DNA of 64,000 nucleotides from IMG/VR virus record IMGVR_UViG_3300048672_000970, positions 128,001-192,000 of that record; one strand, written 5' to 3'. The notes under the pieces are model-generated. The model had not been told where the DNA came from, searched no databases, and saw only the letters and a list, made by a program, of their open reading frames with translations. Below, piece after piece: positions 25,545 to 55,430 of this stretch. The stretch's first letter is position 1; the number at the start of each line of letters is the position of its first letter. The stretch is from a virus (Duplodnaviria; Caudoviricetes). The position numbers and the translations under genes are program-made.

Positions 25545-26220
25545 GGGTGTCCAAACGAGCTAAAACGGCCTAGGAGCGATTTGATAGTGGAAGGTGGGCA
25601 CAGGTAGCTTGACGGATGAAATCGGCTCTAAAGCCCGTTAACCGCGTCCTGGCTGCATGTTCTTATTTGCCACCTAAAGGAATTTACTGAATGGATGGAA
25701 AAGCCGGTAGGTCAGTCGGTTGTCGGTTGGTTCCGTTCAGAGAAAGGTTCGTAGCCGGTTCTTAGTTGGTTAGCTCAAGTTTCAGGTTGGCTTCCGGAAT
25801 TGATTTAACGGCTGTTAGCGCGTTCTTAAGCTGCATAGACTACCTAGGTAGCTCATTGAAAGAAAACGGCTCTAACGTCCGTTTAAGCCCCTTCCTAGTC
25901 AATTCCTTATTTGTCACCTAAAGCAATTTCTCAGAATTGGTTAGAAAAGCCGGTAGGTCAGTCAGTCAGGCAGTCAGTCAGTCAGTTCACTTGAGTTAGT
26001 TCACTTGAGTTAGTTCAGTTCAGATGTGTGCAAACAGATTGACTAAACGGACGTTAGAGCTTCTGATTAGGTAGATAGCTACCCATGTAGCCAGATGAAC
26101 AAAAATGGCTCTGAAGCCCGTTAAACGCGTTCTAGAGGTACTTCCTTATTTGTCACCTATAGGTATTTCTCAAAAGAAGTGAGGAAGGGGCTGGTAGGTC
26201 TGTTAGGTTGATTGGTTCAG

Positions 26221-26322
26221 AGAAAGACTCAGTTGACTGAATGCAGGGCTGGCTTGACTGCTTGTTAGAGCAGCAAACAGCGAATGTGGTCGGTCAACTG
26301 CTGAAGCCCGTTAGGGCTGAGG
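26221..26322 (+). ncRNA. candidate structured RNA/ssDNA module A1
   Basis: CAGTTGACTGA(26230-40) pairs with TCGGTCAACTG(26290-300), followed by CTGA-AGCCC-gtta-GGGCT-GAGG. Confidence 0.5.
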
Positions 26323-26542
26323 TTATGAGTACAGAAGTAGTTGACTAACGCGCTGTTAGACATCTGTTAAACGGGCCATAGCGCGATTAGAAAGGGTGGT
26401 AGCTACGTGGGTAGCCTAGCGGATGAAATCGGCTCTATGACCCGTTTAAGCCCCTTACAAGTCAATTCCTTATTTGTCACCTAAGGGTATTTTACAAATG
26501 AGTGGAGAAAAGCTGGGTAGGTGGCTTGGTTGGTTAGCTCAC

Positions 26543-26641
26543 AGAAAAGCTTAGTTGAGTAGTGGCTTGAGACAGCTTGCTGCCGGTAGGCTCAAGATGC
26601 GAAAGGACTACTCAACTACTGAAGCCCTGTAAGGGCTGAGG
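26543..26641 (+). ncRNA. candidate structured RNA/ssDNA module A2
   Basis: TAGTTGAGTAGT(26552-63) pairs with ACTACTCAACTA(26607-18), followed by CTGA-AGCCC-tgtaa-GGGCT-GAGG. Confidence 0.55.
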
Positions 26642-26684
26642 TTAGGTAATGAGATGGATTAGGTATTGGTTCAAAAAATGCTGA

Positions 26685-26691
26685 GTAAATA
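26685..26691 (+). promoter_or_regulatory. late promoter (GTAAATA)
   Basis: NTAAATA 15 nt before ATG 26707, inside a TGAGTA/TACTCA hairpin. Confidence 0.6.
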
Positions 26692-26706
26692 ACTACTCAT
26701 GAAGGA

Positions 26707-29700
26707 ATGACACAAATGACCAAAAAAGATTACACATTGCCTTATCAGGAACTAGCCAAGTTCATTTCCCCTAACTTACGTAATTCAGTTAACGTCTCTA
26801 TTACCAAGAACTTGTTCGACCGATTCCTCACTCAAAATGAATCAGCTCCTTTTTACGGGTATGTGGGTAACAATCCTGGCACGGTCACGCAACGTTTGGC
26901 AACTGATGTAGAACAAGATATCAATCACATCGTTCCCCTGTTTTCGTTCAATCAAGGGAAAGAGGAATTTATTTTCACTGAACAGGATTTGGTCAACAAA
27001 GCGAAAGCGATTGGTCTGACGGCCAATTTAGAAGATTGGCTAGCTGCCCAAGGGAACAACTTCTGTCCGCCAATCTCACTGGACAAATTTACCAATTTCT
27101 TCAATTACTACTACACGGCAAATGCGCTTGATTACAAACCAGTGATGGGATGGAATCAGACGAACGCGCCTGAATACTACTGCATTGAAAAGCCGGCTAA
27201 TGGAAGTTTAACCAAACTGAACGTTGATGTGGCGACAACCGAATTTATTGTCCCTACTGGTACTGGTTTTGCCAATCAACTTTTCACGGTCACTTGTGTC
27301 AATAACACCGTATCTGAGTTACAATTCAGTGTAGCCAATGTGGGTGCCCTCGGGGGATGGGTTCCTGTCAGTGGTGCCAATTCGTTCACTATGCCTAAAA
27401 TTAACTCAGGGTTAGTGAATACATATACTCATTCATTTGCCGTCTCAAAAAACGGCGTGACTAAAACTCTTATCACGTTCGACATCGTATGCGACCCGTT
27501 ATTTGATACTGAATCCAATCTCATTGGTTATGAATCCTTTAACGTCGGTGACACTTTATCGATTGATGCGAAATTTATCTCATCAGTCTATTCTGTTTCA
27601 TTTACCGGCTCAACGGGCATCAAGGGTAAAGTGAAAAATGTCAAGACCCTCGCTGCTTATCAAGTCATCAATAATGTCCAGTTGCAAAAGGGTATGCGAG
27701 TTCTTGTCAAGAATAACGCCGGTTCAGAAAATGGAATTTATACGGTGTCTGAACAGAGCTGGTCATTTGCGGAAGATTTTACTGCCGGTTCTAATGTCAA
27801 TGCGGAAGTATTTGACATTCACGGGCAAAGCCGGTATCGAGCTGTTTCGGTTACCGGGGGCTATTCATTTGTCCAATCCGGTTCAACTTCATTGACAAAT
27901 GATTGGCAAGAGCATAATTACTGGATGCATATTTCAGAAGTGAATGCACGTGGGTTAGACTTGGCTAAAATCCAACAGGCAGTTCGACCGATTATCGAGT
28001 ACAAGAATTCAGTTCAACTGAATTCATTTGTGGCTAACGGCCGCCCAGCTTCTTCCGGAACGGCTTACCAGCAAACTAAGCAAAAGTTCAATCAGTTTCC
28101 GCTGTTCGATTTATTCAATCATGATGGCACTCATTCCGGATTCGTATCACCAATTTTCTTCTATGAAGAATCAGTGAATGGACAACTGGACGTTAAGTTA
28201 CAGAAGCGAGTTGCCAAGTCAGATTTCCTGTCCGCTGATTTCCTTTTCAATCACGGCCTAATGGATGGCGATAAGGCATTATTCTTCAAAGAAGCTGGTC
28301 AGATGAAATCCATTTGGACGGATGGCTATTCCAGTTCAACTATCATTTCTTCCTCTTTCACCGGAACTGGTAACGGAACTATTTCTGTTCAGCTAACAGG
28401 TAAAAATATCCCTGAACAAATTTGGACGTTGAATGCATTGAATGCATCTTCGTTCAAACTGACTGGTAATTCATTTTCAGGTAATGAATTGGTGTCAATT
28501 GGGCAACTGTACTCGAATGAATATTTCACCATTCAAATTGTTAATGGAAGCATTCCGTTTCAAGTGAATGATTCGTACACGTTCGTTACTGCCGGCAAAA
28601 ATATTCCGGAATGGGTTGTTAAGCAGAACGACAAAACGAACATGGTGTTACTGAGCGAAAATGGCACTTATACCGTGCCAATGTCTTTTGTTCATAATGT
28701 TAAAAATGAACATCAGGCGACTTTGCAGGAAGGGGCGTTATATTCTCACTTCAGAGATATTCTTAATAAGGGAGTATCGAACAAGTTTGGCGGCGCCATC
28801 AAATCATGGAATGACCCGGTGAATATTTTCATCGGATTGATGATGCAAAAAGACATTAACCCATTGTCATTGATTGATTATGCGCAGCGTAGTTATGAAT
28901 CGGCTTCTAACTCAGTTATCGATTTATACGTGTCAAAAATTCTGCAATATGTCGCTGATGTCAAAATTCCTTCCGCGAAAGAATTTGCCGACTATGCGTT
29001 AAGTGAACTGCTGAAAAGTCGAGATGTCAAGCAAGTGTTTTATGATACGACCAGTCTGGCAGGGTTTCCGATTACGTTGCCAATGATGGGATTTACTGCG
29101 CCAGTGATGCCGCAAATCGTCCATGTGAACGAACTGGACGGGCAATTTATCCAGCATCACGATGGACACAAGAGTCCGTTATTTGCCGACACCTATCAAT
29201 TATTCGAGCGGATGTTTTCTAACAAGACGACTGTCAATAAAAACGGTGCTGAAGTTGAAATCCTGTTGTCAACGACTGTCGAGCCAACCACCCCGTTCAA
29301 GGGCGCGATGTGGATTAATAACACCAGTTCCGCGTCTTCTATCAAACTGTTTGATGTAACGTCAGATGCGAATAATGCGCCGAGCAATCCATCAGCCGGA
29401 ACGACTTGGCTGAATACTCAGACTAATCAAGCATTTGAGTATGATGGCACTGGTTGGATTTACAAAAACAAATCTGACCTATGGAAAGAAATGAAGTTTG
29501 GTGAATTACTCAACTCAATCATCATCGAAATTGAATCGAGACTGTATGACAGGTGTTATGCCAGTCCGATAAATCTTTCCATTCCGAATATGGAACAGGA
29601 ATACATTTCGTGGGCGACCGCTAACAAATATAAGCCATACGCTTCCATCGCCAGTGAAGACCCGTTCTCTTGGAATTATTCATCAATTGGTCAAGCTCGC

Positions 29701-32700
29701 TGGTTCGATGTTATCACGGCTTATCAATCAACTCATGGTATCAGTTATCCAACGGCTCGACCCGATCTGGCGCCGTGGCAACTACTCAACCATGCTTCTA
29801 AGCCGGCCAATTGGGATATTCAGTATAAGGCGAAGTTGACAGACTTAACTGGTTATACCAATTCAATTACTGTGTCAGCAGTTTCGTTCAGTGAAACGCC
29901 GACGAACGTTACCCGATTTGGATTACCAGTGATGGACGGAGTTCAATTGAGTAATGGCGACTATATTCTGTTAGCGTCCGAAGCACTACCTTCCAATAAT
30001 GGCATCTGGCAAGTATCTACCGGAAGTTGGACTCAAGTATCATTTGATTTCAATACCAAGCTACTTTTCACTGTTCGATATGGCTCAGTATTTGCTAACA
30101 CCATTTGGGGCAATATCACCAATCAAGAATTTGCCCAATACAGAAAGTGGTCTAACAAAATGTGGGCGGACATTAAAGCCGTTACTTCGGTCAAGTTATT
30201 TGTCAATACGGTCACTGATGAAAATTTACCTCCTTATCTGCCAGCTTCTGACCGATGGGCGAATGAAGTTTTGACGAACGTCATTCCGACCAGTTGGCAA
30301 GATGAGTATCAATTTGGGGATAATTCGTTACTTGAATCCGTGTGGAAAAATTCTATTGATTACAAGTATAACGAAGTAAAAGCCTATTGCAAAGTCAATC
30401 CGTTAGGATTTATTGAAAACCTGTGGGGAATCAATTACTTAATTATCGACGGCATTCGATATGACTATAACGCACAGTCGCTGGTCAGTCTGTCCAATCT
30501 GAAAATGCACGGTGATGCTATCGATTCAACTCGCACTCATCAAGTAGTCGGCACTGTTAACAAGGATGTTAAATTAGTTAATCACACTCGGTCAGTTGGT
30601 TATCCAGAATTCTGCGTATTCGACGGAGATGTATTTGTCGGCAAACTGATTGCCAATCAAATCACTAACGGGACAATGAATGGCGTCACGTTCACTAACT
30701 TTGGCATCAAAGATAACGGGTCTGCCTTCCAACAGGGCGACATGTTCATCATTGCTAATTCAGTTGTTTCATTTGTCCCAGCGACGACGAAACAATATAT
30801 TGGTTTTGGTCAATTGTTCGCTAATGCGTTAAGAAGTATGAGCGTGGACACTAACAGAAGTTATGCCGTATCCGCTTTCAAAAATTGGCAGACAACTATT
30901 GGCTATCGAACTGGCCGAATGATTGCGGAAAATTGCGTAGTTGAAACAGGGACGACCGTCATCCCGGAATCTGCCTACTCGCTAAAGCTGAAAAAGAATA
31001 GGGTCAGTAACTCACTCTGGATGCAAGCACTGAACGTGTCCGTCCTCTCTAACTCAGGCCCGAAAGAAAACTGGACGTATCAAATTGATGGCTTTAACCC
31101 CAATCAAACTGAATTCCAATATTATCATCTTGACCCTTCTTCAGAAGAAATTACGTTTAACGTCCTTGACACTGAATTAGTCCTCTCCCACTATTCAGAA
31201 ATTGCCAATTTGGTAAAAACGACGTTTCCAACCACAATCCAAGGGCTATTACCCTTGGTTAACGTATTGTTCGGATATTCGATGTTTTTAGAAGCAAATG
31301 GCTTCACGATGGACGACAATGACAACAAGATAGAAGCAGATAGCGGAAGATTCCGTAATTGGCAGTTAGAGATTGAAAAAATGGTATCTAATTTGGATAC
31401 GGTTGGATTGAATGACCCTATTCAGATGAATCCGTTCATGGATGGATTTACGATTGAGCATGGTGATGGATTGACTGCTGAATTTGTTGACACGGACATT
31501 TTTGATGTGAAGTCGCATCCGGCCATTTTTGATTTGGTTGGGGCGAAAATCAGTGTGAGAGATTTGTTCGTGGTCAGAACGGCGGACAAGACTGTTATCA
31601 AGTCGGAAGTACCTATCTATTCAGCTCATGTTCAGTTTGACGAGTATGAGAACATTTTCAAGTTTGAAAAGCAGATTGGCACTGATAAATTACTGTTTGA
31701 TGAGTTTTCAGGTGCGCGGATTTCAACTCTAACGTTCAATGGGCGAGGTTCTGCCAATGAAACGATGCGCCCTGAATTTGGTGGCCATTTCATCTCGGAC
31801 AATGCATCGAAACTTAATTTACAGGCGTCGATTGATGCGATAGCTAACGCGTACAATCCTGATAAGCAATTTGACCCGACCATTTCAAAACATGCTTTGG
31901 CATTACTTGGATTTTCTCAGAAAGACTACCTGAGTAACATCGGTGTCGATATGAATACGCAACTGGCTTTCTGGCGTGGAATGATTCAGATGAAGGGAAC
32001 TACTTCGTCTGTTAATGCGTTACTCAATCACAAGAATTATTCCGGCGCGAAAATTGACGAGTATTGGGCGGTGAAGATTGCCGAGTATGGTGACGCCCGC
32101 GAAAAAACTTATCCAGAGCTGAAAGTATTTGCGGCAGATACTTATCAGCATTTTACCAAGTATCAATTTGGTGATAATTCGTTATCAGGATTCACGTTCA
32201 TCGACCCGATTGATGACAATCGATGGTTTGCTCTCCCCGATTTGAACAAAGATATGACTTTTTCATCGAAGACAACTTACTACTCGAATAACTCAGCTTC
32301 CGGATTGATTACCATTCCTTCTGGTGATTCATTCATCAATGGAACAGCTACTTATCAAAAGCTGAACGATACCACATTGAAAATTACTGGAACGGGGACA
32401 GTTAATGTCTCATCACTCAATCCAGATGTGGACAAGTATAATCCGATTAAACTGTTCAACTATCAAGCTAATGAGCATGTCACCGATATTTGTTATTGGC
32501 ATCCGAAGGCGGGTTATCATTCAGCAGCTATTTCGGCAGTGGACATTATTTCAAATACTGACCCGGCGAAATATTCTAACTTAGTGACAACGGACGTTAA
32601 TGAATATTTTTCATGGAGTGATAAGGAAATTGGACGTATCTGGTTTGATACTGATAAGGTAGCTTATCAGCCGTATGATGATTCATCCATCTATCCGGAC

Positions 32701-34923
32701 ATTGACCAGCGGTTGATTAGATGGGGTGGACTGGCTGATTATGCGTCAGTCAGTATCAATGAATGGGTTGAATCGGATGTCATTCCGTCCGCTTACACCA
32801 CTTACTACCCGGCGGAATATGGTCAGCCGAGTAACGAAGCTGTCTATCAGCGTGAGAAAGCTTGGCAAGTTCGTCCGATTGCGTGGAGTCAGGCGGGCGT
32901 GGCTATTGCAGCCGCTCATCCAGCCTTTAACGCCGCTTTCTTCCCTTCAATCACGTTCGACAACCAATCAGGGACTGCATGGCTGGAAAGCGGCTCTTTC
33001 GCCGATTTGGGCATCAAGGCTAATATGCATGTCGGCACTTGGACAAATACGCCGGTTGAAAAACCGTTGTCTGAGTACAAAATTATTGCTAATGATTCTA
33101 AGACGGTGTTACTCGATAACATCCTGCCCAATCAGCAAACTATCACGAAGAATGGATTGACAGTTAATGTTTCTATCAAAGCAATTGGCTCTACCAAGAA
33201 ATTAGGCCAACTGCTTTTCGTCGGGCCAAATTCTAACGCCAGTTTGATTCAATCTGTTCAACGAATCGCCATCGAAGGGACGTTAGTCAACCAATGGGAA
33301 GTGACAGCAAGTATTCGGGTCATTGAAATTGATACGGGTGATTTTGTCGATGTACCAATTAACACAGCTATCGGGTCAGTTAATTCCGCTCCTTATTATG
33401 GCACGTCCGATTCAATGGTGCAAAATGACACGGTAGTTGGCACTATCGAAAATTTCAATCTGCAAATTACGTTAACGGCTCTTAACTCAGTTAATAACAT
33501 GCCGATTGATACTTTAGCCAATATCATTGAAGAAGCGTTTTCGAGCAGAGTGACTTTACATGATACCATTTCCATTCAGCAAATTGTGCCGAATACTGTC
33601 AACGGCGTTATTTGCAATGACCCGCAATCTCCGGATTACACAGGTATCGAATGGCGTTCTTGGTCAATGCCCGCGCAAGCTGATTTGGATGATGATTCAC
33701 CGGCTCCCAACTCAAAGTGGAAACCTTATATTGGTGATTATGTCTCCGTGCAACCAGTGACTTTTGCGATGATTGCCGATGCCACTAACCCTGATTTGGT
33801 TCTGTCTGATTCAACTATTATTCCTCGGTATAAGACCAGTTGGAATGATTGGGTGGAATTGACGCCGACTCATTATGATTTTGTCGCACAAACAACGGTG
33901 TCAACTATTCAAGTAATGGATGTTGATTCAGCCCGTATCGCGGTTTATTTCAATGGCATTGCGCAATCGAATACTTACTCAAAGATTGGCACGACGATGA
34001 CGATTAATTGCCCGATTGGCACGTTTGTCAAAGTTATCATTTCCGTCTATCAACCAACTCAGAAAGAACTGGCATTCAATCCGGACGTGGCAGATGACGT
34101 AAAAGTTCAAACACAGTTTAAGAGAGATTTCAAGTATGTGACGAAGATGGTCAGAGATAACACCGGCCTCGTCAGTGGAAACAAGTATTATTTCTGGGTA
34201 ACTAATCGCAACCTGGGTTCGGGTCAATTGTCTGTCAATCAAATCAAGCAGCAATTGACGACTGCGCCAAGTGCTTATTTCATCATTCACCATCTGGTCA
34301 ATGGTAAATATGATTCGGTCATCATTTCCGGTCTTAACTATCTTGTCCCCAATTCGGATGAGTATAAGTTACGTTTCACCCGTGATTACACCCTTCGTAC
34401 AGATTCTAATGATTTGGACTTGAAAGATGTGCACACGGAATGGACGTTAATTCGTCCCGGTCAACGGACTAAAATCCCTGAGCAACTGTGGAACAAGTTG
34501 GTCGATAGTGTTTGTGGACAAGATAGCGCCGGCAACTCAGTGCCATACGAAAAGTTTGTTTCATACGATGCGAAGTATGGCAAGAATTCAAAGTATGGAT
34601 TTGGTGTTGGACAAGTGTTAGCTGACAAAAACATTCTCATTGAAACCATCAAGTACGTGGTGCAAAATACGTCCTTGGTCGTGGAAGGTGATTATCCAAT
34701 TCCCGACTATATCTCTTTCATTGATTTCGCTGAGTTAGATTCGCTGTTCAGTGGGGCAAATATTCGGGAGACGATGAACAGAATTTGGAACCTTGCGTCA
34801 GTGGCGCAAATCAACGAAGTGTTTTTCGCCTGTTTGGAAGATGTCATCGCCAGTAATTATGAGTTGACGGACGTGTTCAAAACCAGTAGACTTTCTGCCT
34901 ACGGAATTAGGGTGGTTTCTTAA
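26707..34923 (+). CDS. giant virion structural protein (baseplate-wedge-like), 2738 aa
   Basis: Late promoter; two (I/M)(N/D).VQL..G..(V/I)L(V/L)...NG(I)(Y/W).V...SW modules typical of tail/baseplate proteins; beta-rich repeats. Confidence 0.65.
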   Translation: MTQMTKKDYTLPYQELAKFISPNLRNSVNVSITKNLFDRFLTQNESAPFYGYVGNNPGTVTQRLATDVEQDINHIVPLFSFNQGKEEFIFTEQDLVNKAKAIGLTANLEDWLAAQGNNFCPPISLDKFTNFFNYYYTANALDYKPVMGWNQTNAPEYYCIEKPANGSLTKLNVDVATTEFIVPTGTGFANQLFTVTCVNNTVSELQFSVANVGALGGWVPVSGANSFTMPKINSGLVNTYTHSFAVSKNGVTKTLITFDIVCDPLFDTESNLIGYESFNVGDTLSIDAKFISSVYSVSFTGSTGIKGKVKNVKTLAAYQVINNVQLQKGMRVLVKNNAGSENGIYTVSEQSWSFAEDFTAGSNVNAEVFDIHGQSRYRAVSVTGGYSFVQSGSTSLTNDWQEHNYWMHISEVNARGLDLAKIQQAVRPIIEYKNSVQLNSFVANGRPASSGTAYQQTKQKFNQFPLFDLFNHDGTHSGFVSPIFFYEESVNGQLDVKLQKRVAKSDFLSADFLFNHGLMDGDKALFFKEAGQMKSIWTDGYSSSTIISSSFTGTGNGTISVQLTGKNIPEQIWTLNALNASSFKLTGNSFSGNELVSIGQLYSNEYFTIQIVNGSIPFQVNDSYTFVTAGKNIPEWVVKQNDKTNMVLLSENGTYTVPMSFVHNVKNEHQATLQEGALYSHFRDILNKGVSNKFGGAIKSWNDPVNIFIGLMMQKDINPLSLIDYAQRSYESASNSVIDLYVSKILQYVADVKIPSAKEFADYALSELLKSRDVKQVFYDTTSLAGFPITLPMMGFTAPVMPQIVHVNELDGQFIQHHDGHKSPLFADTYQLFERMFSNKTTVNKNGAEVEILLSTTVEPTTPFKGAMWINNTSSASSIKLFDVTSDANNAPSNPSAGTTWLNTQTNQAFEYDGTGWIYKNKSDLWKEMKFGELLNSIIIEIESRLYDRCYASPINLSIPNMEQEYISWATANKYKPYASIASEDPFSWNYSSIGQARWFDVITAYQSTHGISYPTARPDLAPWQLLNHASKPANWDIQYKAKLTDLTGYTNSITVSAVSFSETPTNVTRFGLPVMDGVQLSNGDYILLASEALPSNNGIWQVSTGSWTQVSFDFNTKLLFTVRYGSVFANTIWGNITNQEFAQYRKWSNKMWADIKAVTSVKLFVNTVTDENLPPYLPASDRWANEVLTNVIPTSWQDEYQFGDNSLLESVWKNSIDYKYNEVKAYCKVNPLGFIENLWGINYLIIDGIRYDYNAQSLVSLSNLKMHGDAIDSTRTHQVVGTVNKDVKLVNHTRSVGYPEFCVFDGDVFVGKLIANQITNGTMNGVTFTNFGIKDNGSAFQQGDMFIIANSVVSFVPATTKQYIGFGQLFANALRSMSVDTNRSYAVSAFKNWQTTIGYRTGRMIAENCVVETGTTVIPESAYSLKLKKNRVSNSLWMQALNVSVLSNSGPKENWTYQIDGFNPNQTEFQYYHLDPSSEEITFNVLDTELVLSHYSEIANLVKTTFPTTIQGLLPLVNVLFGYSMFLEANGFTMDDNDNKIEADSGRFRNWQLEIEKMVSNLDTVGLNDPIQMNPFMDGFTIEHGDGLTAEFVDTDIFDVKSHPAIFDLVGAKISVRDLFVVRTADKTVIKSEVPIYSAHVQFDEYENIFKFEKQIGTDKLLFDEFSGARISTLTFNGRGSANETMRPEFGGHFISDNASKLNLQASIDAIANAYNPDKQFDPTISKHALALLGFSQKDYLSNIGVDMNTQLAFWRGMIQMKGTTSSVNALLNHKNYSGAKIDEYWAVKIAEYGDAREKTYPELKVFAADTYQHFTKYQFGDNSLSGFTFIDPIDDNRWFALPDLNKDMTFSSKTTYYSNNSASGLITIPSGDSFINGTATYQKLNDTTLKITGTGTVNVSSLNPDVDKYNPIKLFNYQANEHVTDICYWHPKAGYHSAAISAVDIISNTDPAKYSNLVTTDVNEYFSWSDKEIGRIWFDTDKVAYQPYDDSSIYPDIDQRLIRWGGLADYASVSINEWVESDVIPSAYTTYYPAEYGQPSNEAVYQREKAWQVRPIAWSQAGVAIAAAHPAFNAAFFPSITFDNQSGTAWLESGSFADLGIKANMHVGTWTNTPVEKPLSEYKIIANDSKTVLLDNILPNQQTITKNGLTVNVSIKAIGSTKKLGQLLFVGPNSNASLIQSVQRIAIEGTLVNQWEVTASIRVIEIDTGDFVDVPINTAIGSVNSAPYYGTSDSMVQNDTVVGTIENFNLQITLTALNSVNNMPIDTLANIIEEAFSSRVTLHDTISIQQIVPNTVNGVICNDPQSPDYTGIEWRSWSMPAQADLDDDSPAPNSKWKPYIGDYVSVQPVTFAMIADATNPDLVLSDSTIIPRYKTSWNDWVELTPTHYDFVAQTTVSTIQVMDVDSARIAVYFNGIAQSNTYSKIGTTMTINCPIGTFVKVIISVYQPTQKELAFNPDVADDVKVQTQFKRDFKYVTKMVRDNTGLVSGNKYYFWVTNRNLGSGQLSVNQIKQQLTTAPSAYFIIHHLVNGKYDSVIISGLNYLVPNSDEYKLRFTRDYTLRTDSNDLDLKDVHTEWTLIRPGQRTKIPEQLWNKLVDSVCGQDSAGNSVPYEKFVSYDAKYGKNSKYGFGVGQVLADKNILIETIKYVVQNTSLVVEGDYPIPDYISFIDFAELDSLFSGANIRETMNRIWNLASVAQINEVFFACLEDVIASNYELTDVFKTSRLSAYGIRVVS

Positions 34924-34965: not shown

Positions 34966-37900
34966 ATGTCGAATAACACCTATATTCAAAGTCTGATTGA
35001 CTACATTAATGATACCAAGCCCTTCAGGTCTAAACTATCTGAAGTGGTCGAAGAATATCATTTCACTGATGTGGTCAATGCGGCCATCACAGACAAACTT
35101 GTCCTGAAAGAAATATCTAGACCAGTATCAAAGTTCGACTATTATTCAAATGGTGTGCCTATCAGCATGCAATTACATCCTTTGAATTTGGTTGGTGATA
35201 CTGGTTGGTTTTACGGCCCCGGACAAAATTCAGCCTATACTGTCGGGGTCAGTGAATCAACCGAACTGGCTAACATCCCTTTCCAATATGGCAAGAAACA
35301 TTATACGTATTCGTCCGATGCGTCAATTTTTAGGCAGGGGACGTTAGCGGAAGAAGAACTGTTAGAAAATCATGATTTCCTGAACGTCAGAGGAAGCATG
35401 CAGTTTCAAATCAATCAGACGCACAATCCGGATGGGTCAGCAAACCCTCTTTATACGTTGACCGACGAAGTGAATTTGATTTCTGATGCAGCCAGTCAAA
35501 AAGCTGGTTGTATCAATTTTCTCATCGCTCTTTTTACCTATGTGCTCAATTACACACAGAACGTTTCGGTTTATTCAGCCGTCAATGCTGAACTGCATCT
35601 GCTTCTCATCGATTTAGATAACAACGTTTTGCCGACTGATTTTACCGCGTTGCAATATGCTTTCTCGTTAATTTCCGCACCTGATTTAGCTCTCATCCCC
35701 GATTTCACGTTGACTTGGTTTAACAGCCAGTTGCAAAAATCCAGCTCTGGATTATTCACGGGTATGTATTCAAATGAAGCAGTCAAACATGCAGCTTCAT
35801 ACTCGTTCAATAACTATGCTGATTCAGTGATTGGTATCAGTTCAATTACTGTCCCAGCTAACACTTTGTTAGAAGAATTTTCCCTTGTCGCTGTTTCACC
35901 CACTCAATTTCAAGTGTATGGTTCTGATTCAGGATTCCTCGGTTCATTTATAGCTGGGGCTTCTTTCACGTCCGCGAAAGTGTCATTCAATACCTCGATG
36001 GTCGGTAGTCCGACCATCGGTTATACGGTCAAATTGACGGCCAAGAATACCATCTCCATTCACCCTGATGCCAATTTGGAAACGTGGAACATTGTCAAAA
36101 TCAATCCTAAGAATTATACTCGTCCAGTGGTTGACTCGGATTCGTATGGCTATTTCACCTCTGCTAACGGAAAAAATACCATTCAGTTTTTAACTGAGAC
36201 TATCAGCGGAATGATGATTTTTGAGGCGCAGTCTGCTTCCACCTTCAAAATTGAATGTGGTTCTTATCAATCAACCTTTTCTTGCAATACTCCTTTCAAT
36301 GACGGTGTACTCAGTTTCACGTTCGTCAAGGGAAGTTATGATTACCAAGTAGGTGACAGGTTTTATATCGAAGTAGTCAATCCGGCTCCAGTCATTCGAG
36401 ATTTCGGACTGTATTTTGGCTATGATGCATTTGGTTATGATGGCTTTGATGCCAATTCACCGGCTTGGCTCAAAAACTTGAACGTGACGAATGATTCACG
36501 ATTTCCGGCCGTGTCATCAATAGATGTTAGTTTATCAGTTGTTCCAACCGCTCTATCAAAATCATACCGGCTCGTTGCCTTACCTGACGAAACCAATCCG
36601 TATAACATCTTGCAAAAAGATGGGACGACTAATAACAAATTTGACATCACTTCCCCAGACCCTTCAATCAGTCAAGCTGTTTATGATGCAGTTGCTTTCC
36701 AAGTTAATTCACATGTCAGTTCCACCCATTCACCGGCCACTGGAACAGACATTACTTTATGGCATGTCGCTCAATTCAGTGTGCAAGCGTTTGAAAATAA
36801 TGGATGGGTTGAAAAGCAAATTGCCAATATCGGTGATACAGTTTCTATCGATGGTGTCACACTAACTATTCCCGCCAAACCCTACTTGGCGACGAAAGTT
36901 TTCTATTCACAATATTTGACCGATGATGTCAATTCATTATTCACTGAGACAGTTACTAATGGTGACATGTATTTTTTCACGGTGGACAATCAGCCAACAT
37001 CCATTAAAGAATGGTACAAGAGTAGTGTCAATTTCCCTCATGTCATCATTCATGCTAAAAACATGGGAGCAGCTATTGATGCGAAATGGACGATTACTAA
37101 GCAAAGTTCAGGATTCTTGCTCGCCGGCCTTTACACGTCTGGCAATAACGCCGGCTCACAAATCTATGCGAAGAATTTAACCGAACTGAGTTATCAAGAT
37201 TCTTATCTACATTTCACCATTGATGCCGGTAAAATTGGCATGCAAAATGGAGATAAGCTTGAGTTTGAAACGCATGCTTCACCTTTTGAGTATGCCGTTT
37301 ATGGTAGTTATTCAGGATTTACCGGCTATGCCAAATTCAATGAATGGTTCTCTAACGGAAAAATTGGATTCAAGTTAGTTCCGCCAACTATCAATCTATT
37401 CGAGAATAACACTTTGATAACCAATGGTATTTCAGCTGCTGGTCAAATTGGTGTTCAGGGAAATAAAGTGGGGACGTATGTATTGAAAGGAATGGGGTCG
37501 AAATGGGCGCTATACCTTGGTACTCAGTTGCTGGGCATTGGTGTTAATTCCATTCAAACGACTGATATTTCAGTGACGATGCCCAATCCAACGATGGCAA
37601 CCGTCATCATTCAAATTCTTTCCCCGTTTGATTTTCCTTTCGGGCACAACTCAAGTATTGTCATTAACAAACTGCCGCAAACTGGTAATGTAGTCAATCT
37701 GAAAAAGACATCGTTTGATTATATGCAACTGGCATTTTCTGCGCCGATTACAGCCGTTACTCCACTGATTCCTGAATCGATTGACCTTCGATTCATTGAC
37801 CAAGTGCTTGTGTCAGATTTGACGAAGTATAACGTTACTAGCCCAGAATTATACTTGAACAGAAATTTCATTCCGCTAGATGTCAAACGACCCACTTATG

Positions 37901-41250: not shown

Positions 41251-41251
41251 T

Positions 41252-41905: not shown

Positions 41906-41906
41906 T

Positions 41907-42554: not shown

Positions 42555-42626
42555 GTTGAAGCAGCCCCTTCAAAAACCCGCTGAACAAATGGAAGCTTAA
42601 TTTTGTAACAAAGTGTAAAAGGTTTC

Positions 42627-42655
42627 TTGACTGGCTTGCTACCAGTCGTTATACT
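42627..42655 (+). promoter_or_regulatory. near-consensus sigma70 promoter TTGACT-N17-TATACT with AT-rich upstream tract
   Basis: Exact 17-bp spacer; precedes ORF 42686. Confidence 0.85.
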
Positions 42656-42685
42656 CTACCCATACCAATTTACTGAGAGAAAAAC

Positions 42686-43294
42686 ATGGCTGTTCATCTG
42701 TTTCGCACTTTCGCTGCTGACCTTGACAAAGAGACTGGTAATCCGTTCGGCGAGTTTCATAATTTTGTCCGCGCGCAAACCGCCACACCCGAATATGATC
42801 ACCGTAATATATACACGCTGTATCCCAGCGCGATGGTGGCCGAACCGTTGTATGGGCAAGTGTTCGCGCTCGTGAATGGATACGGTTCGCCGATTTTGCG
42901 CATTGGTACGTCATTTGAAGAAGCAACTCAGTTGTTTCCCGGACTGAGTGACGCTGTTAAGAAAGTGTGCGATCTGAAGTCTGCTCTCACAGCCCAACTG
43001 ACGGTGGAACAAGAAAATGTACCCGAGTTCAAGGAATGGAAACACCTCAGTGCTTGGGATTATAACGAGCCGCGCCCTGCTAATTTGATCACTATTGTCC
43101 AAGCCCATATGGCTGACGATGAGGAATACCTCGACACGATTGATGCATTTTGTACTGCCGCCATTCGTCTCACACAGGTATCTGACGTGCTGACGTTCCA
43201 AGAATGGTTTGATAACGCATCTGTTGGTCAGGCGCGCAAAACTCTTGAAAAATATTTCATGGGTAAATTCTTCTTCAATTCGTGGGTGATTTAA
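42686..43294 (+). CDS. untagged paralogue 5 (sigma70-driven)
   Basis: ADDEEYLDTIDAFC...EWFDNASVGQARK; no LFES leader. Confidence 0.75.
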   Translation: MAVHLFRTFAADLDKETGNPFGEFHNFVRAQTATPEYDHRNIYTLYPSAMVAEPLYGQVFALVNGYGSPILRIGTSFEEATQLFPGLSDAVKKVCDLKSALTAQLTVEQENVPEFKEWKHLSAWDYNEPRPANLITIVQAHMADDEEYLDTIDAFCTAAIRLTQVSDVLTFQEWFDNASVGQARKTLEKYFMGKFFFNSWVI

Positions 43295-43296
43295 TC

Positions 43297-43881
43297 ATGC
43301 TCATCGAATTGTTTGAGCGCCTTGCTACCAATACGGCTTCAGCAGAAGATTGGGCAGCATTTGAAGTAGAGAAATGCCTAAGAGTTGTTTTTGATGCAGA
43401 TAATCTATCGCAAGGGATTATTTTTTATTTCAACACTTCAAAACACTTCACGCATTCTGGGCAGGTGGTATTTTTCCCATTAGTATCACCACTAATAGCT
43501 GTTCACGATGCAGACGCAGGATTTGGAAACATGCCGAAATTTTCAGCCGGAGCTATTTCGGGCATCATCCAATGCAGGGGAACGATGGATGAAATATGCA
43601 AGAACGAAATAGCTAAACTAGATAACCGAGATGAATCTACCCAACCTAACTATACCCGTCTCGCCAGTGAGTTAAAATCGTGTGAACAGTATGAAGAACT
43701 GGTTGAATCAATGTGCGCTAAAATCATTGCGTTTACCAGACAGCCACACGTTCCATTAACCCATGATGAATGGTTTGGCGGCGCGAGTATTGCCCACATC
43801 CGCACTCTCCTTCATAAATTTCTTTTCAGTGAATACTACCTGAGAAATCGGGTACAAAAGTTCCACACCAAATCATTGTGA
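43297..43881 (+). CDS. paralogue 6 (MLIELFER leader)
   Basis: SCEQYEELVESMC...EWFGGASIAHIRT. Confidence 0.7.
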   Translation: MLIELFERLATNTASAEDWAAFEVEKCLRVVFDADNLSQGIIFYFNTSKHFTHSGQVVFFPLVSPLIAVHDADAGFGNMPKFSAGAISGIIQCRGTMDEICKNEIAKLDNRDESTQPNYTRLASELKSCEQYEELVESMCAKIIAFTRQPHVPLTHDEWFGGASIAHIRTLLHKFLFSEYYLRNRVQKFHTKSL

Positions 43882-43912
43882 TACAATGAGCTTTCTTGTA
43901 TCTTTTTGAAAG
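43879..43912 (+). promoter_or_regulatory. extended -10 promoter/leader cassette, copy 1 of a 34-nt direct repeat
   Basis: TGATACAATGAGCTTTCTTGTATCTTTTTGAAAG; two mismatches to 44563-44596. Confidence 0.7.
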
Positions 43913-43919
43913 AGGTAAT

Positions 43920-44549
43920 ATGCACCAACGTAAATTAAATTTACTTGATATGGTTAAACTACCCTCAACCCCTTTTATTAAGCCGCCGTGGTATGATTCG
44001 CTGAAAGCGGTGAGCGCGCGAATTGAAGCCGCGCTGCCACCCCCATTAAAATATGATGCATGGGTTGAGTGCAATTGGTTCATCCCAATCAACGATAGGG
44101 ATGCATCTGTAACTGGATTTATAGTTTTATTTTTCCTTAACGTCTATCACCTCCCCGACGACCCGGCGACGAAGATCGCGGTGTATGACATGGATACTTT
44201 ATCGCGTCGGGTCATCAAATTGACTCCATTAGAAGCAGCGATAAACGCTATACAATTATCTACGCAGAAAATAGTAGATGATTGTATATCAGATGCGTCA
44301 AACTACAAAGAACGTGCTGAAGCCATTGAAAATGTAAAGAATGTTTTGCAAGAAAACGATGCATATAATGATGCCATTGACACTTACTTTCGTGAAATAC
44401 TTTATTTGTGTAGAGTTAATGACCTCCCGTATAACGTGATGTATGGAGATAAAAACATCGCGGACGTTAGAAAAGCATTCTTTTTCCATATGTTTGAAAC
44501 GTTCGCTGCAGATTTGGTTGATATTCATGGTCTTTACCAAGCAGCCTAA
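43920..44549 (+). CDS. untagged paralogue 7
   Basis: ATG 43920 after GAGG; ENDAYNDAIDTYF...VMYGDKNIADVRK. Confidence 0.75.
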   Translation: MHQRKLNLLDMVKLPSTPFIKPPWYDSLKAVSARIEAALPPPLKYDAWVECNWFIPINDRDASVTGFIVLFFLNVYHLPDDPATKIAVYDMDTLSRRVIKLTPLEAAINAIQLSTQKIVDDCISDASNYKERAEAIENVKNVLQENDAYNDAIDTYFREILYLCRVNDLPYNVMYGDKNIADVRKAFFFHMFETFAADLVDIHGLYQAA

Positions 44550-48322: not shown

Positions 48323-48344
48323 AAACTGATTTACTGGATACACA

Positions 48345-49480: not shown

Positions 49481-49483
49481 CAT

Positions 49484-51439: not shown

Positions 51440-51442
51440 ATA
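51436..51442 (+). promoter_or_regulatory. late promoter (TTAAATA)
   Basis: Overlaps the terL stop; 17 nt before ATG 51460. Confidence 0.5.
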
Positions 51443-51459
51443 AGTTTTTGGGGTAGGGT

Positions 51460-51948: not shown

Positions 51949-52466
51949 ACAAAGTAGAAATTTATTCACCTGAATACAGTTCGTCCATCACCCATTTTAA
52001 CGGTATCTCCATTGCCATTCCTGGTTTAGAAGAATTACAAGGGCTGTTATCCGGTAATGCAGCGTCATCGACCAACTACACCTACATCAAAATAATGAAG
52101 GGAACGGTGCCAACGTCGTTAGCCGGCTTCAACCTTGATTATCGCGCATCAGATGAGTTGATGCGGTTTTCAACTGGTCAAGGGCGCATTCCTAGTGGTT
52201 CGCAAGATTTCTCGGTATCATTTCCGTCCTGGCATGAAGTTAACATTTCTTCCAATGTCTTACCGGCCGTTAACGGAGGGACTGCCACTTGGTTCTTGCT
52301 TGAATCGATAAGCAGTGTGGGCAATATTTGCCATCAGTTGATTGGGACGGTTGGCTTGCCAAACTCGGGTGCAGACCTTGAGTTATCAAATACTACACTC
52401 ATTCAAGGGTCTTCATATCACATCGTCAAGTTTTATATCAATTTCAACTATTTTTGGAGCGTGTAA
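51945..52466 (+). CDS. virion structural protein
   Basis: IKIMKGTVP...GTATWF...IGTVG...SGADLEL. Confidence 0.6.
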   Translation: MNKVEIYSPEYSSSITHFNGISIAIPGLEELQGLLSGNAASSTNYTYIKIMKGTVPTSLAGFNLDYRASDELMRFSTGQGRIPSGSQDFSVSFPSWHEVNISSNVLPAVNGGTATWFLLESISSVGNICHQLIGTVGLPNSGADLELSNTTLIQGSSYHIVKFYINFNYFWSV

Positions 52467-54529
52467 TGTACAGCGCAGGCATCGGCATTTACGCCGCATT
52501 AAAAAAGTATAACGTTGTTTCGTTCAATGTTCAGTATTCGGTCAGCAACTTCAATCAACCATATAGGAATATATTCACGGTTAAGTCTGGTAACATCGTT
52601 TTCGATGTCGATGCCAGACTGAGTTATAGAGGGTTGAATTTCCAAACTACCGACATGCCGTTTGTCAAAAACCGCACCTACATTCCGGCTGATGGACAGT
52701 ATTACAAAAACTACTATTTCTATCGAGGGACAAATTCCACGTTTGAAAATGATGCTTCGGAAGGAGGCATTGCCGATTTCTATTCGACGTACAATTATGG
52801 TGCGATGAGATTTTCGGGCGCATCAATGGTCACGGCCAATAAGAAAACTCCGTTTCTGAATAGCATGCATTCTTCCACTGGCAAATACACCATTATCATG
52901 TGGGTTAGATTAGGCGATAGAACGGTATCTAACGGCGGTGTGTTGTTTGATAGCGGAACGAACAACGGATTCAACGGCATTCAAATAGGCGAGATTGGTA
53001 ATGCATCTGGCCTCAATTTGAATAACTTATCATTCACTATCAAAAACTCTGACACTATCTTTGATTTGAGTTCCATTAGTAACGTCAACTTGGGTACACA
53101 TCGGGTGCAAGGTATTGCGTTAAGTATCGATTGCACCGGTGCATCCAATTCATTTGTCAGAACTTTTAGAGGTGGTAATGAATATCCAGTTTTCAATCTA
53201 GCTTCATATTTTGCTTCAGCTACTGGTTCTTATTCCGCATGCCCAAATTTCGCTCGGATTGGTGCTGATGCAAATGGAACTAGAATTGTTCCTGATGGCA
53301 CGACTGTTTTCAGTGTGAGAACCTATAACACCAATTTGACGGCTTCAGAAGTCTATGATGAATTTTTGCAGCAAGCACATCAGTTTGACCCGTTACTCAT
53401 TTTAGATGCGTCCAATTCGCCAACCATCACTAACAATTTCATCACTGATAATTCAAACTATGCGGTGGAATCATTACTCCAAAATACTGCTCCTGAAACT
53501 GCCCCTGCTGAGTTATTTTGTGCAACATCAATTCCAGTGGGAAGTAGTGCGAAATCAATCAGGTTGCGTCTCGGCTTGATGGCTAATGAATTGATGTCGA
53601 ATGACTACACGATGAAATTTGTGTTCAGTATGCCGTCTGCTTCATCAACCTCCGTTTTTTATGCGAGTGATGATGGCAGTATGGAAATTTATTATCGCAC
53701 TTTTTCAAACGAGATAGTTATCAATCATTCAAACGGAACAGCAACATTTCCAGTGACGTTATCCGCCAATACGAAATACATGCTGACTATCACGTATCGG
53801 CATTCATATTTCTATGTTCATCTGAACGGTGTTGCCATCTCTGGCACAGTAGCTGTCAATAGACCCGCACTCAGACTGGCTACGGCCGCATATGCATACA
53901 TCGGTTCATCACCAAACCGAAACTCATCTTCACAAATCAATTTGAAGTATGTCGTCTTTTACCCATATGCCAAATTTGATTCATACGATTACAATGCGAC
54001 GTTACATGAAGATGATAACGCCCCTTTCCAAATTTCTGCACCCGCTTATCCAGTTGGCATGAAACGTTATCTGAAGTTATCCAATTTCATTTTCGCCACT
54101 GGAACTTCAATGCAATTGGTCGGCATCGAACTCATTAGCATCTATGGGTCAAATATGGAACAAGAAGCAGGATTGATGGCTACTGAACTGCCGGACAACT
54201 ATGATTTCAATATCTTACAAGATTCCATGCCATTTTCAAAACTAGAAACTCTATATGGTGCTACCACCTATTATGTCTCCAAGACAGTATCCACCAATAC
54301 AGTCCTTGTATATGATTTTGGGTTATCTCGAACCACACTTGAACCTTTAGCCGGAATTCGCATATCTTGCAAGAACGACAACTATCCCACTTCGTACACT
54401 GTATGGCGAAGTGATGACGGAATTGTTTGGGATTCTCAAATTGTCGTAACTGGTCAAACCAACCCCGGAAACCAATGGAACAACGTAGCCATCGGTTCAT
54501 TAATGTCCGACCCATTACTCAGTGCTTGA
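52466..54529 (+). CDS. tail-fibre/adhesin-like protein with LamG (ConA-like) and C-terminal discoidin-like domains
   Basis: YTIIMWVR...GVLFD...SVRTYNTNLTASEV; YPTSYTVWRSDDGIVW. Confidence 0.6.
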   Translation: MYSAGIGIYAALKKYNVVSFNVQYSVSNFNQPYRNIFTVKSGNIVFDVDARLSYRGLNFQTTDMPFVKNRTYIPADGQYYKNYYFYRGTNSTFENDASEGGIADFYSTYNYGAMRFSGASMVTANKKTPFLNSMHSSTGKYTIIMWVRLGDRTVSNGGVLFDSGTNNGFNGIQIGEIGNASGLNLNNLSFTIKNSDTIFDLSSISNVNLGTHRVQGIALSIDCTGASNSFVRTFRGGNEYPVFNLASYFASATGSYSACPNFARIGADANGTRIVPDGTTVFSVRTYNTNLTASEVYDEFLQQAHQFDPLLILDASNSPTITNNFITDNSNYAVESLLQNTAPETAPAELFCATSIPVGSSAKSIRLRLGLMANELMSNDYTMKFVFSMPSASSTSVFYASDDGSMEIYYRTFSNEIVINHSNGTATFPVTLSANTKYMLTITYRHSYFYVHLNGVAISGTVAVNRPALRLATAAYAYIGSSPNRNSSSQINLKYVVFYPYAKFDSYDYNATLHEDDNAPFQISAPAYPVGMKRYLKLSNFIFATGTSMQLVGIELISIYGSNMEQEAGLMATELPDNYDFNILQDSMPFSKLETLYGATTYYVSKTVSTNTVLVYDFGLSRTTLEPLAGIRISCKNDNYPTSYTVWRSDDGIVWDSQIVVTGQTNPGNQWNNVAIGSLMSDPLLSA

Positions 54530-54544
54530 GTAGTGATTATACAT

Positions 54545-55430
54545 CAACCTTCTCTGAACCCACCAACCCAACCAGCCCCTTCCCTCACTTCTTTTGTGAA
54601 ATACCCATAGGTGACAAATAAGGAATTGACTAGGAAGGGGCTTAAACGGACGTTAGAGCTGTTTTTGTTCATCAGGGCAACACGGGTAGCTAACTGAGCT
54701 AACACCTGTTCTAAAGCCCGTTAAACGCAACCGAACCAACCGACTGACCTGCTGGCTTTTCTATCCATTCATAGAAACTGCTTTAGGTGACAAATAAGGA
54801 ACTACCTCTAGAACGTGGTTAACGGGCTTTACAGCCATTTTTCTCTTTCAGGCTACCCTGGTAGCCATCCGTTATCCAATTCGTCTTAGAGCCTGTTTTT
54901 AGCCATTACCTAACCCAACCCTCAGCCCTTACAGGGCTTCAGCAGCCAAGCAGTTCTTTCGCATCTTGAGCCTACCGGCCACAAGCTGACTCACGCCACT
55001 GCTTGACTGAGTTTTTCTGTGAGCTAACCAATCAAGCCACCCACTAAGCTCTTTCCGCTCAATTCTTCAGTTCATTTGAGAAATACCTATAGGTGACAAA
55101 TAAGAACATAGGTCTAAAACGCGTTTAACGGGCTTTAGAGCCGTTTTATCTCATCAGTCTACCTGGGTAGCCAACAGGTCTTCAAACGCGCTAACAGCCG
55201 TTAAATCAATCAAGAACTAATGAACAAGCAACCATTCAATGAACCTTTTTCTGAATGGAACCAACCGACTGACCTACCGGCTTTTCTAACCAATTCAGTG
55301 AAACTGCTTTAGGTGACAAATAAGGGAATGCCTCTAAAACGCGTTTAACGGCCCGCTACAGCCGATTTCATCCAACAGGCTACCTATGCCTACCCTCCAC
55401 CTACAAAACGCTCCTAGCGCGTTTTAGCTG
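54545..55430 (-). repeat. non-coding repeat cluster B: inverted homologue of cluster A, four units
   Basis: TAGGTGACAAATAAG at 54608, 54784, 55090 and 55310; 54608-54659 is the exact reverse complement of 25869-25920. Confidence 0.92.
54920..55018 (-). ncRNA. candidate structured RNA/ssDNA module B
   Basis: Minus strand: CAGTCAAGCAGT pairs with ACTGCTTGGCTG, followed by CTGA-AGCCC-tgtaa-GGGCT-GAGG. Confidence 0.55.

Follow-up and report, generated by a model that had tools for sequence, protein, structure and literature searches.

The 64,000-nt stretch of DNA analyzed here (the window) covers positions 128,001 to 192,000 of IMG/VR record IMGVR_UViG_3300048672_000970, a 200-kb contig (44% G+C, ~56% complete) from an uncultivated freshwater jumbo phage whose genes for replication and recombination are T4-like (gp32-like SSB, RecA/UvsX-like protein, UvsW, TerL). 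Two regions of the window hold tandem arrays of a composite element, in which an imperfect palindrome (P) precedes a 15-nt core sequence and a non-coding module follows it. The first array, A4 (25551..26660, + strand), consists of four tandem units with neither an open reading frame (ORF) nor a sigma-70-like promoter. It sits between an intrinsic terminator (25510-25540) and the late-promoter box and start of a gene for a 2738-aa virion protein (26707). The second array, A5 (54530..55430, - strand), also has four units. It converges on the 3′ end of a + strand gene (52454-54529) and, on its 5′ side, looks onto the promoter region of the SSB gene (55985). A preliminary description of this DNA had placed A5 beside a block of SSB, uvsX, uvsY, and uvsW genes; SSB, the RecA/UvsX-like protein, and UvsW were confirmed as neighbors, while UvsY was not.

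The two clusters had been described as twins, forming a pair. However, the contig contains three more arrays, each with three units: A1 (contig 51.9-52.8 kb, + strand), A2 (contig 60.5-61.5 kb, - strand), and A3 (contig 122.5-123.4 kb, + strand). Because there are at least five arrays, with 17 units in both orientations in this contig, plus an array on a second contig (L031), the paired reading fails. The arrays make up five of the eight ORF-free gaps longer than 500 bp in a contig that is 92% coding. Their relation to neighboring genes is mixed: A1, A2, and A4 aim at the starts of large structural genes (1180, 536, and 2738 aa, respectively), while A3, A5, and the array of L031 are convergent with a neighboring gene and meet its 3′ end. 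In five of the six arrays, the beginning adjoins the start of a gene transcribed in the divergent direction, and A4 begins directly after the intrinsic terminator. Genes downstream of arrays keep their own GTAAATA(C/A) late-type box between the array and the start codon. We found no conserved small ORFs in the modules and no ORFs between units, and ARAGORN detected neither tRNA nor tmRNA in the window. Since the arrays ignore gene orientation, the genes that they face have their own late boxes, and no sigma-70-like promoter is present in A4 or A5, the arrays appear to be autonomous units in which P plus core is the sole conserved candidate for a start signal.

The late-type box GTAAATA(C/A) shows a 12-17-fold enrichment in the 80 nt before predicted starts, as in GAGTAAATAAC at ~26676 before the gene for the 2738-aa protein. 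For the shorter TAAATA, 44 of the 72 copies in the contig lie upstream of genes, mostly 20-35 nt from the start. The GTAAATA motif is probably the late promoter of this phage, a shortened version of T4's TATAAATA.

The core, CTTATTTGTCACCTA, occurs eight times in the window, four times on each strand, with seven exact copies and one that reads CTTATTTGCCACCTA. By chance, 0.19 copies would be expected, and none of 100 shuffled sequences reached eight. These are the same eight copies, at exactly the same positions, that the preliminary description had reported. In the 200-kb contig we counted 17 exact or near-exact cores, all within the five arrays of three to four units, and when L031 is included the core is invariant in 18 of 19 copies. 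No degenerate family of cores exists outside the arrays, as a scan of the contig allowing up to three mismatches returned 19 hits (the 17 real copies and two others) compared to 7-11 in shuffled sequences. The sole variant in the genome is a T9C change in unit 1 of A4 (25662-25676); contigs from two other metagenomes that align at this site carry the consensus T.

Each core is held at a fixed distance from P. The distance from the CCRTT of the right arm of P to the core is 27 nt in 16 of the 17 genome units and 28 nt in the remaining one, and the 3′ half of the central GCTACC-N4-GGTAGC precedes the core by 59 nt in 14 of 17 units, with the other three at 60-61 nt. A gapless stack of all units holds register from about -105 to +15. 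The earlier layout of the unit and its rigid geometry were thus borne out, both by reading the two clusters and by gapless stacking, and the reported 37 nt from GCTCTA to the core is correct when read off the sequence. Spacing is fixed only within units, as core-to-core distances vary from 176 to 349 bp. Units at the same position in different arrays are 71-86% identical, while other pairs of units are 50-65% identical. An invariant 15-mer and fixed distances amid 50-86% unit identity indicate strong purifying selection.

The linkers had been described as free in sequence, which holds for the left linker within P (0.54 bits per column) but not for the right linker, which contains a conserved GGATGAAA (1.08 bits). 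The linker between the right arm and the core is not free either, as its sequences group into two or three families. As previously noted, G prevails on the oriented strand, at 28-31% compared to 16.5-19% C.

The control modules, each comprising P and core, span 116 nt wherever they occur in the window. In A4 (all + strand), they lie at 25561..25676 in unit 1 (P 25561-25646, a 15-nt linker, and the variant core at 25662-25676), 25805..25920 in unit 2 (P 25805-25890, core 25906-25920), 26044..26159 in unit 3 (P 26044-26129, core 26145-26159), and 26368..26483 in unit 4 (P 26368-26453, a perfect palindrome with 25/25 pairs; core 26469-26483). In A5 (all - strand), they lie at 55310..55425 in unit 1 (P 55340-55425, core 55310-55324), 55090..55205 in unit 2 (P 55120-55205, core 55090-55104), 54784..54899 in unit 3 (P 54814-54899, core 54784-54798), and 54608..54723 in unit 4 (P 54638-54723, core 54608-54622).

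P is an imperfect palindrome of ~85 bp, made up of a left arm, 17 nt, the central dyad GCTACC-N4-GGTAGC, 16 nt, and a right arm, GAAAaCGGCTcTAAaGcCCGTT. After the CCGTT of the right arm, a 22-nt linker of fixed length leads to the invariant 15-mer. The palindrome is real, as 77% of cells pair in register compared to 26-51% when the partner is slid, and in a MAFFT alignment of 18 palindromes just five of the 105 columns have gaps. Every P stands ahead of a core; none follows the last module of an array, and none occurs alone elsewhere in the contig.

We asked whether P behaves as DNA or as RNA. Most P elements fold as a long hairpin when single-stranded. However, RNAalifold found no common fold across all 18 palindromes, and the consensus energies of the two strands, calculated per subtype, showed no strand preference (-20.7/-22.0, -14.3/-14.2, -5.5/-4.0, and -12.7/-18.8 kcal/mol). 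Among non-Watson-Crick cells, G.T (20) and A.C (17) were about as frequent, favoring neither strand. Conservation is higher in the right, core-proximal arm (1.55 bits per column) than in the left, distal arm (1.12 bits), and in the first unit of every array, which makes a poor hairpin, the right arm is retained. Since a plain hairpin would constrain both arms equally, this asymmetry speaks for a DNA site. Our reading is that P and core form a DNA module that points towards the core and would be read by protein. The idea that the dyads of the left arm, center, and right arm are helically phased on one face of the DNA was dropped, as their centers are ~29.5 bp apart, which is not an integral number of turns. 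A comparison of the proteins of the three P-bearing contigs yielded no common protein at E<=1e-4 that could be a candidate for binding P.

Downstream of the core, the modules follow a common order: a leader, (T/A)AGG(T/A)ATTTC; a GCYGGTAGGT box; a variable G+T-rich tract with microsatellites; and a CAGAGAAAG box. Short units then enter the next palindrome, while long units are extended by a domain of ~103 nt together with a terminal hairpin, CTGAAGCCC-N3-5-GGGCTGAGGTT. The order of unit types is conserved across arrays, with a short unit first and long units later. In the window, short GU-rich modules follow the core in A4 unit 1 (25677..25804, + strand; AAAGCCGGTAGGTCAGTCGG...TTCCGTTCAGAGAAAGG, conserved in sequence but weak in predicted structure), A4 unit 2 (25921..26043, + strand; a (TCAG)n microsatellite and TTCACTTGAGTTAG direct repeats), and A5 unit 1 (55206..55309, - strand). 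Long RNA modules occupy 26160..26325 in A4 unit 3 and 26484..26644 in A4 unit 4 (both + strand) and 54917..55089 in A5 unit 2 (- strand). A5 unit 4 ends in a truncated G-rich module (about 54530-54607, - strand) that runs into the stop of the convergent gene. The microsatellites of the short modules, (TCAG)n with up to eight copies and (TTGG)n with up to six, differ in copy number between arrays. They lie at window 25948-25992 and in the first units of A2 (L004) and A1 (L001), and one metagenome contig appears to be cut at such a site.

The ~103-nt domain has the hallmarks of a structured RNA. For the seven copies of type 1, RNAalifold gave a consensus energy of -35.1 kcal/mol on the strand of the core and -23.3 kcal/mol on the antisense strand, where the G.U pairs of the sense strand turn into A.C mismatches. 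In these copies, 94.7% of cells are paired and 10 of 30 pairs have changed on both sides; none of 500 shuffles paired to this extent, and slid controls reached 22-45%. A covariance model built from the seven copies found nine in the contig, two of them with a different inner insert, all within arrays and in the orientation of the core. The same model found one further copy in L031. In an alignment of all ten copies, which leans towards the structure as it was fitted to the covariance model, 94.9% of cells are paired (slid controls, 23-44%; none of 500 shuffles reached this level), and 15 pairs, with 40 cells, are compensatory. The outer stem is 12 bp long, and 11 of its 12 positions vary across the ten copies yet remain paired. 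Unlike in the palindrome, G.T cells outnumber A.C cells (23 versus 5, p = 0.0009). The loops of the inner hairpin are GCGA, GGAA, or GGTA, which are of the GNRA type.

Three of these domains are in the window. In that of A4 unit 4 (26542-26644; covariance model E 1.1e-22), the 12-bp covarying stem is accompanied by a GGTA-looped inner hairpin and by CTGAAGCCC-TGTAA-GGGCTGAGG as the terminal hairpin. The others are in A4 unit 3 (26218-26325, with the type-2 insert; E 2.4e-7) and A5 unit 2 (54917-55019; E 4.4e-22). In the third unit of A1, the terminal hairpin is kept with another sequence, ATCCC-GGAG-GGAT. In the last module of A3 (L007:2200-2225, genome ~123.3 kb), it is altered to CTGAAAAGCCC-TTTA-GGGCTTAAGG; read on the opposite strand, this is a hairpin with TTTT after it, located precisely where the convergent gene stops. 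The altered hairpin may double as the intrinsic terminator of that gene.

From its pattern of substitutions, the ~103-nt domain is best described as a predicted structured RNA that is read in the direction of the core. The preliminary description had seen the conserved spacing as the signature of a multi-protein DNA complex. For P plus core, a DNA-level role is in keeping with the lack of strand preference and the rigid spacing, but an account in terms of DNA alone misses the strongest signal, the structured RNA.

Our preferred model, to which we assign a probability of about 0.5, is that the arrays are tandem non-coding RNA cassettes, each with a dedicated control module consisting of P and core. 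Each unit of ~220-350 bp would be a self-contained non-coding transcription cassette with P plus core as its protein-bound control region. We infer that the core is a promoter and that P binds a regulator. P could be an activator or operator site placed in fixed phase beside an unusual promoter keyed by the core; alternatively, the core could be read by a phage-specific polymerase or sigma factor. Transcription in the direction of the core would yield one of two types of RNA. One would be a short GU-rich RNA of about 45-130 nt; the other would be an RNA of ~160-175 nt whose 3′ domain has the 12-bp covarying stem, the inner hairpin capped by a GNRA-type loop, and the conserved terminal hairpin. 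With three or four tandem cassettes at each of at least five loci, the phage would have ~17 or more small RNA gene copies that are independent of neighboring protein genes. As to what such RNAs might do, our guess is that they are abundant and act in trans as decoys or regulators, with GGU-rich tracts that bind protein.

Several observations weigh against this model. The core fits no host promoter class that we compared by eye, and the late box of the phage, GTAAATA, differs from it. The comparison included sigma-70, sigma-54, sigma-28, sigma-32, ECF, Bacteroidota, T4 early, middle, and late, and SPO1-type promoters, none of which fits; what we take to be the nearest look-alikes are the T7-like TCAC..TATAGG and the SPO1-late CGTTAGA-N18-GATATT. 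Neither A4 nor A5 holds a sigma-70-like promoter. Searches of the 200 kb, ~56% of the genome, found no T7-like polymerase (PF00940) and no sigma factor (PF04542, PF08281), a negative that is uninformative because 44% of the genome (~150 kb) is missing and, for PF00940, because the control genomes cannot register this family. A promoter that serves only non-coding RNAs and never protein genes would be unusual. The 3′ half of the core, CACCTA, is complementary to TAGGTG, a conserved box found 35-45 nt further downstream, so the RNA may include the core instead of starting after it. Structure predictions for the short modules are not significant (z about -1). Part of the G.T excess of the 3′ domain follows from G+T-rich composition. 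Lastly, the copies come from essentially one phage lineage, and the compensatory changes are between paralogues, with a modest number of independent events.

The cassette anatomy is also compatible with replication origins primed by transcription, a model that differs only in the purpose of the RNA and that we consider possible but unlikely. Here P would bind an initiator or helicase loader, or extrude a cruciform, and the several dispersed arrays would be multiple origins; the G-rich transcript of the core promoter would stay as an R-loop, possibly aided by G-quadruplexes on the displaced strand, and prime the leading strand, in a way that would resemble T4 oriF and oriG, the T7 primary origin, or ColE1 RNA II. 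The units are gene-free, tandem, promoter-like, and not needed by neighboring genes, and five of the six arrays adjoin a divergently transcribed gene. The core and leader have 60-76% A+T; beyond them, over ~40 nt from +30, the non-template strand is rich in G (G-C +0.25 to +0.36). T4 offers an analogy, as it has at least five origins, three of them near transcriptional divergence, and oriF and oriG each consist of a promoter and a downstream unwinding element and act through R-loops that are later removed by UvsW (PMC3016281); the phage described here encodes UvsW beside A5. In addition, an unrelated phage contig, L040, has two P-like elements in its sole divergent control region, with G3-5 tracts between them. 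However, R-loop formation at T4 oriF is independent of specific sequences (PMC3016281), whereas the 103-nt fold is kept by 15 compensatory pairs, which argues that the folded RNA is itself functional. A4 and A5 have neither a sigma-70 promoter nor one of the MotA type, and no extended A+T-rich unwinding element was seen; A+T content is 58-76% over ~40 bp at and after the core, compared to 56% genome-wide, and by inspection there is no TAnnnT at a fixed position after the core. A1 lies at the cumulative GC-skew minimum, but this test is confounded because the main gene-strand switch falls at the same place, and skew inflections are absent from the other four arrays of the contig. Seventeen initiation units in 200 kb would be many, and no initiator gene was recognized beside any array. 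The spacing does not suit the iteron-like version put forward in the preliminary description, as the units are 176-349 bp apart, whereas iterons are direct repeats of ~17-22 bp that follow each other closely and in helical phase. A combined model, which we hold to be still more doubtful, is that activator-dependent promoter batteries at six or more loci, read by a dedicated factor, fire G-rich structured RNAs that prime replication or load clamps as R-loops. If so, the arrays would be a new class of phage cis/trans element, origin firing would be coupled to late-gene activation in a T4-like jumbo phage, and the P-like elements of the unrelated 48-kb phage would mark a wider, unrecognized type of origin.

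The remaining explanations abandon either the separate cassettes or the RNA. That a whole array is one long multi-domain RNA or precursor, with the P hairpins and the core forming a processing site or the core of a self-cleaving ribozyme, seems improbable to us. An extremely invariant 15-mer beside hairpins is a typical feature of RNA cores that are catalytic or bind protein, most P elements can form a long hairpin as noted above, and the pairing of the 3′ half of the core with the downstream TAGGTG(G) box is preserved through U.G in the variants TAGGTGGC and TGGGTGGC. Yet P lacks the sense-strand preference of the 3′ domain and has no consensus fold across units, it stands before every core and never after the last module, A4 starts directly after an intrinsic terminator, and no ribozyme or large-RNA family in Rfam matches. 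We give as little credence to dispersed DNA sites with a role other than initiation, such as late-transcription enhancers resembling baculovirus homologous regions (hrs; examples would be sites ahead of large late genes at which clamps load or activators bind), substrates for recombination or inversion, or terminase or partition sites. The architecture does match that of hrs, which are dispersed arrays of three to eight repeats, each with an imperfect palindrome (PMC4535591). Moreover, three arrays lie just upstream of the late boxes of the 1180-, 536-, and 2738-aa structural genes, the pairs A1/A2 and A4/A5 face inwards around blocks of structural genes, and the P-like elements of L040 are upstream of a weak TerS-like gene and TerL. 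DNA sites of this kind leave the strand-specific RNA covariation unexplained, three of the six arrays point away from any gene start, at least five arrays are too many for pac or cos, and the TerS match in L040 is marginal (E 0.009). Least credible of all, and in our view very improbable, is a selfish or neutral repeat family (MITE- or REP-like) that spread within the phage lineage without function. Confinement of palindrome-bearing repeats to intergenic DNA, slippage as seen in the (TCAG)8 and (TTGG)6 expansions, and a very narrow distribution would all fit such a family. Against it, units are never single, their order is conserved across arrays that have diverged by 15-30%, we saw no target-site duplications at array ends, and the invariant core, fixed spacing, and compensatory changes are signs of purifying selection.

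As the preliminary description had said, the architecture has no recognized counterpart among described phage elements; neither Rfam nor a literature search with the core sequence, which was not found there, supplied one. In Rfam 15, the window has no hits at gathering thresholds, and for A4 at E<=1 there were only weak hits, to the upstream terminator (25452-25589). The arrays are in line with known kinds of element, namely repeated regulatory cassettes and phage non-coding RNA genes, but no named family fits. The nearest described phage repeats are the PeSL cassettes of T4-type phages, in which an intergenic stem-loop and a promoter form a repeated element of ~100 bp that occurs many times per genome and may provide recombination points (PMC2839356, PMC4122927). 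Both are many-copy composite cassettes that join a stem-loop to a promoter, a putative one in the arrays described here. PeSL cassettes have a consensus sigma-70 promoter and a G/C stem-loop and occur singly between the ORFs that they serve (PMC2839356), whereas the units described here have no sigma-70 promoter in A4 or A5, carry an 85-bp tripartite palindrome, are in tandem without ORFs, and each have a conserved, predicted non-coding RNA.

Other comparisons are looser. Several paralogous genes with their own activator-dependent promoters, and RNAs with repeated short G-rich motifs, are features of bacterial small RNAs and decoy RNAs of the CsrB/RsmZ and Qrr types. Our cassettes have no sequence or Rfam relationship to these RNAs, form tandem phage arrays, and have GGUAGGU/GGUUGG as their motif instead of GGA. 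In phage P4, the alpha primase-helicase binds repeated TGTTCACC iterons in two cis regions, ori and crr, where the 8-bp boxes are closely packed. Like our arrays, these are separated cis regions with repeated short boxes. The resemblance of the P4 box TGTTCACC to TTGTCACC of the core may be chance. P4 ori and crr have neither a palindrome module nor an RNA domain. The 15-mer is like a T7-type promoter, a near-invariant sequence of 17-23 bp with ~10-20 copies per genome, and by eye TCACCTATAGG resembles what we take to be the T7-type ...TCACTATAGG. It differs from such promoters in that no copy is upstream of a protein operon; all are inside arrays, and genes use GTAAATA. The primary origin of T7 has tandem promoters. 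Baculovirus hrs, which belong to an insect virus, are bound by IE-1, for which this phage has no recognizable counterpart. The likeness of our arrays to hrs, which is one of architecture without homology, extends to dispersed tandem arrays with an imperfect palindrome in each unit. Baculovirus hrs, proposed to be both enhancers and origins, have three to eight units of ~64 bp with a 24-bp palindrome (PMC4535591), compared to core-to-core distances of 176-349 bp, an invariant 15-mer, and a covarying RNA domain here. The parallels with T4 lie in promoters, putative ones in our arrays, whose transcripts are not needed as mRNA, in several sites per genome, some of them near transcriptional divergence, and in the presence of UvsW. 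The T4 origins are ~100 bp long, with a MotA/sigma-70 middle promoter, an A+T-rich unwinding element, and no sequence-specific RNA (PMC3016281), while our units lack a promoter of that type, are A+T-rich over just a short stretch, and keep a strongly conserved RNA fold.

To find relatives, we scanned IMG/VR with the exact core. Of 29 contigs recovered, 28 had single chance hits in unrelated sequence, and only L031 was real. L031 is 32.6 kb long, ~9% of a genome of similar size and G+C content, and has a two-unit array between two minus-strand genes. It has no protein in common with the 200-kb contig at E<=1e-4 and may represent a different portion of a genome of the same type. Pattern scans with the terminal hairpin and with the type-2 insert also found only L031. 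Short contigs from four other studies (three labeled freshwater, one seawater) match parts of the arrays at 80-99%; their cores are unchanged, and one difference restores the consensus T. For one run (X1), 94% of the words sampled from the array were present, and related arrays occur in runs X2-X10. No RNA data set was listed as containing the arrays; a run with two short contigs was guessed to be RNA but may be DNA, and it was left out of the evidence. The core plus 8 nt had no hits in JGI metagenomes or in bacterial and archaeal genomes, blastn in distant mode found no match in annotated phage records, and no relatives were found through TerL. The pattern of the inner hairpin retrieved 11 contigs, just four of which matched the covariance model, in part and marginally (E about 0.9), and we treat all as chance. 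The right-arm pattern gave 23 metagenome loci, none of them credible; the best, L085, is inside a coding sequence.

In IMG/VR, the right-arm pattern led to L040 (IMGVR_UViG_3300037313_000101), a 37-kb contig of an unrelated ~48-kb phage with polymerase A. It has two P-like elements (nhmmer E 5.6e-7, covering the whole palindrome, and 9.7e-6). Neither is followed by the 15-mer, but TATTTC occurs 17 nt after CCGTT, and the second copy also has CTGGTAGG. The elements are in the sole non-coding region between divergent gene arms, upstream of genes for a weakly TerS-like protein, a holin, and TerL. This control region (L040:2900-4150, 1.25 kb) also contains further hairpins, including GCTACC-N5-GGTAGC, a G3-5 run (GAGGGAGGGGTGGGGG...GGGG..GGG), and operator-like palindromes (TTAACAATNGTTAA), and the late operon is preceded there by a sigma-70 promoter close to consensus.

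Novel proteins have made jumbo phages well known, but hardly anything has been explored of what they encode besides protein. In the phage described here, at least 17 copies of one non-coding cassette take up ~5 kb of a tightly packed genome, and purifying selection acts on it at two levels, a DNA module of fixed geometry and an RNA fold maintained by compensatory changes. If the cassettes are RNA genes, they would constitute a new and abundant phage RNA family with a dedicated control element and provide a handle on an unrecognized specificity of a polymerase or transcription factor. As origins, they would be without precedent in a T4-like jumbo phage, the first type there that is both repeated and defined by sequence. 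Either way, the 15-mer and the covariance model are concrete probes for metatranscriptomes and wet-lab work.

We also recorded features of the contig apart from the arrays. At G000:C1:43587-44165, ~84 kb upstream of the window, there is a CRISPR-like array with no cas genes seen nearby; its 10 exact repeats contain CTTTTAAGCCGCACGTATGGCGGCGAGG, have a period of 61-62 nt, and are separated by unique spacers. Directly downstream of A4 are two giant ORFs, 26707-34923 (2738 aa) and 34966-38868 (1300 aa). The 2738-aa protein matches the virion structural family phrog_10938 (E 7e-49) and tail-fiber-like segments, while the 1300-aa ORF has no family match. Further along the structural block between A4 and A5, window 40609-44549 encodes tandem paralogues of ~200-240 aa, with at least six members that are 24-44% identical by blastp.

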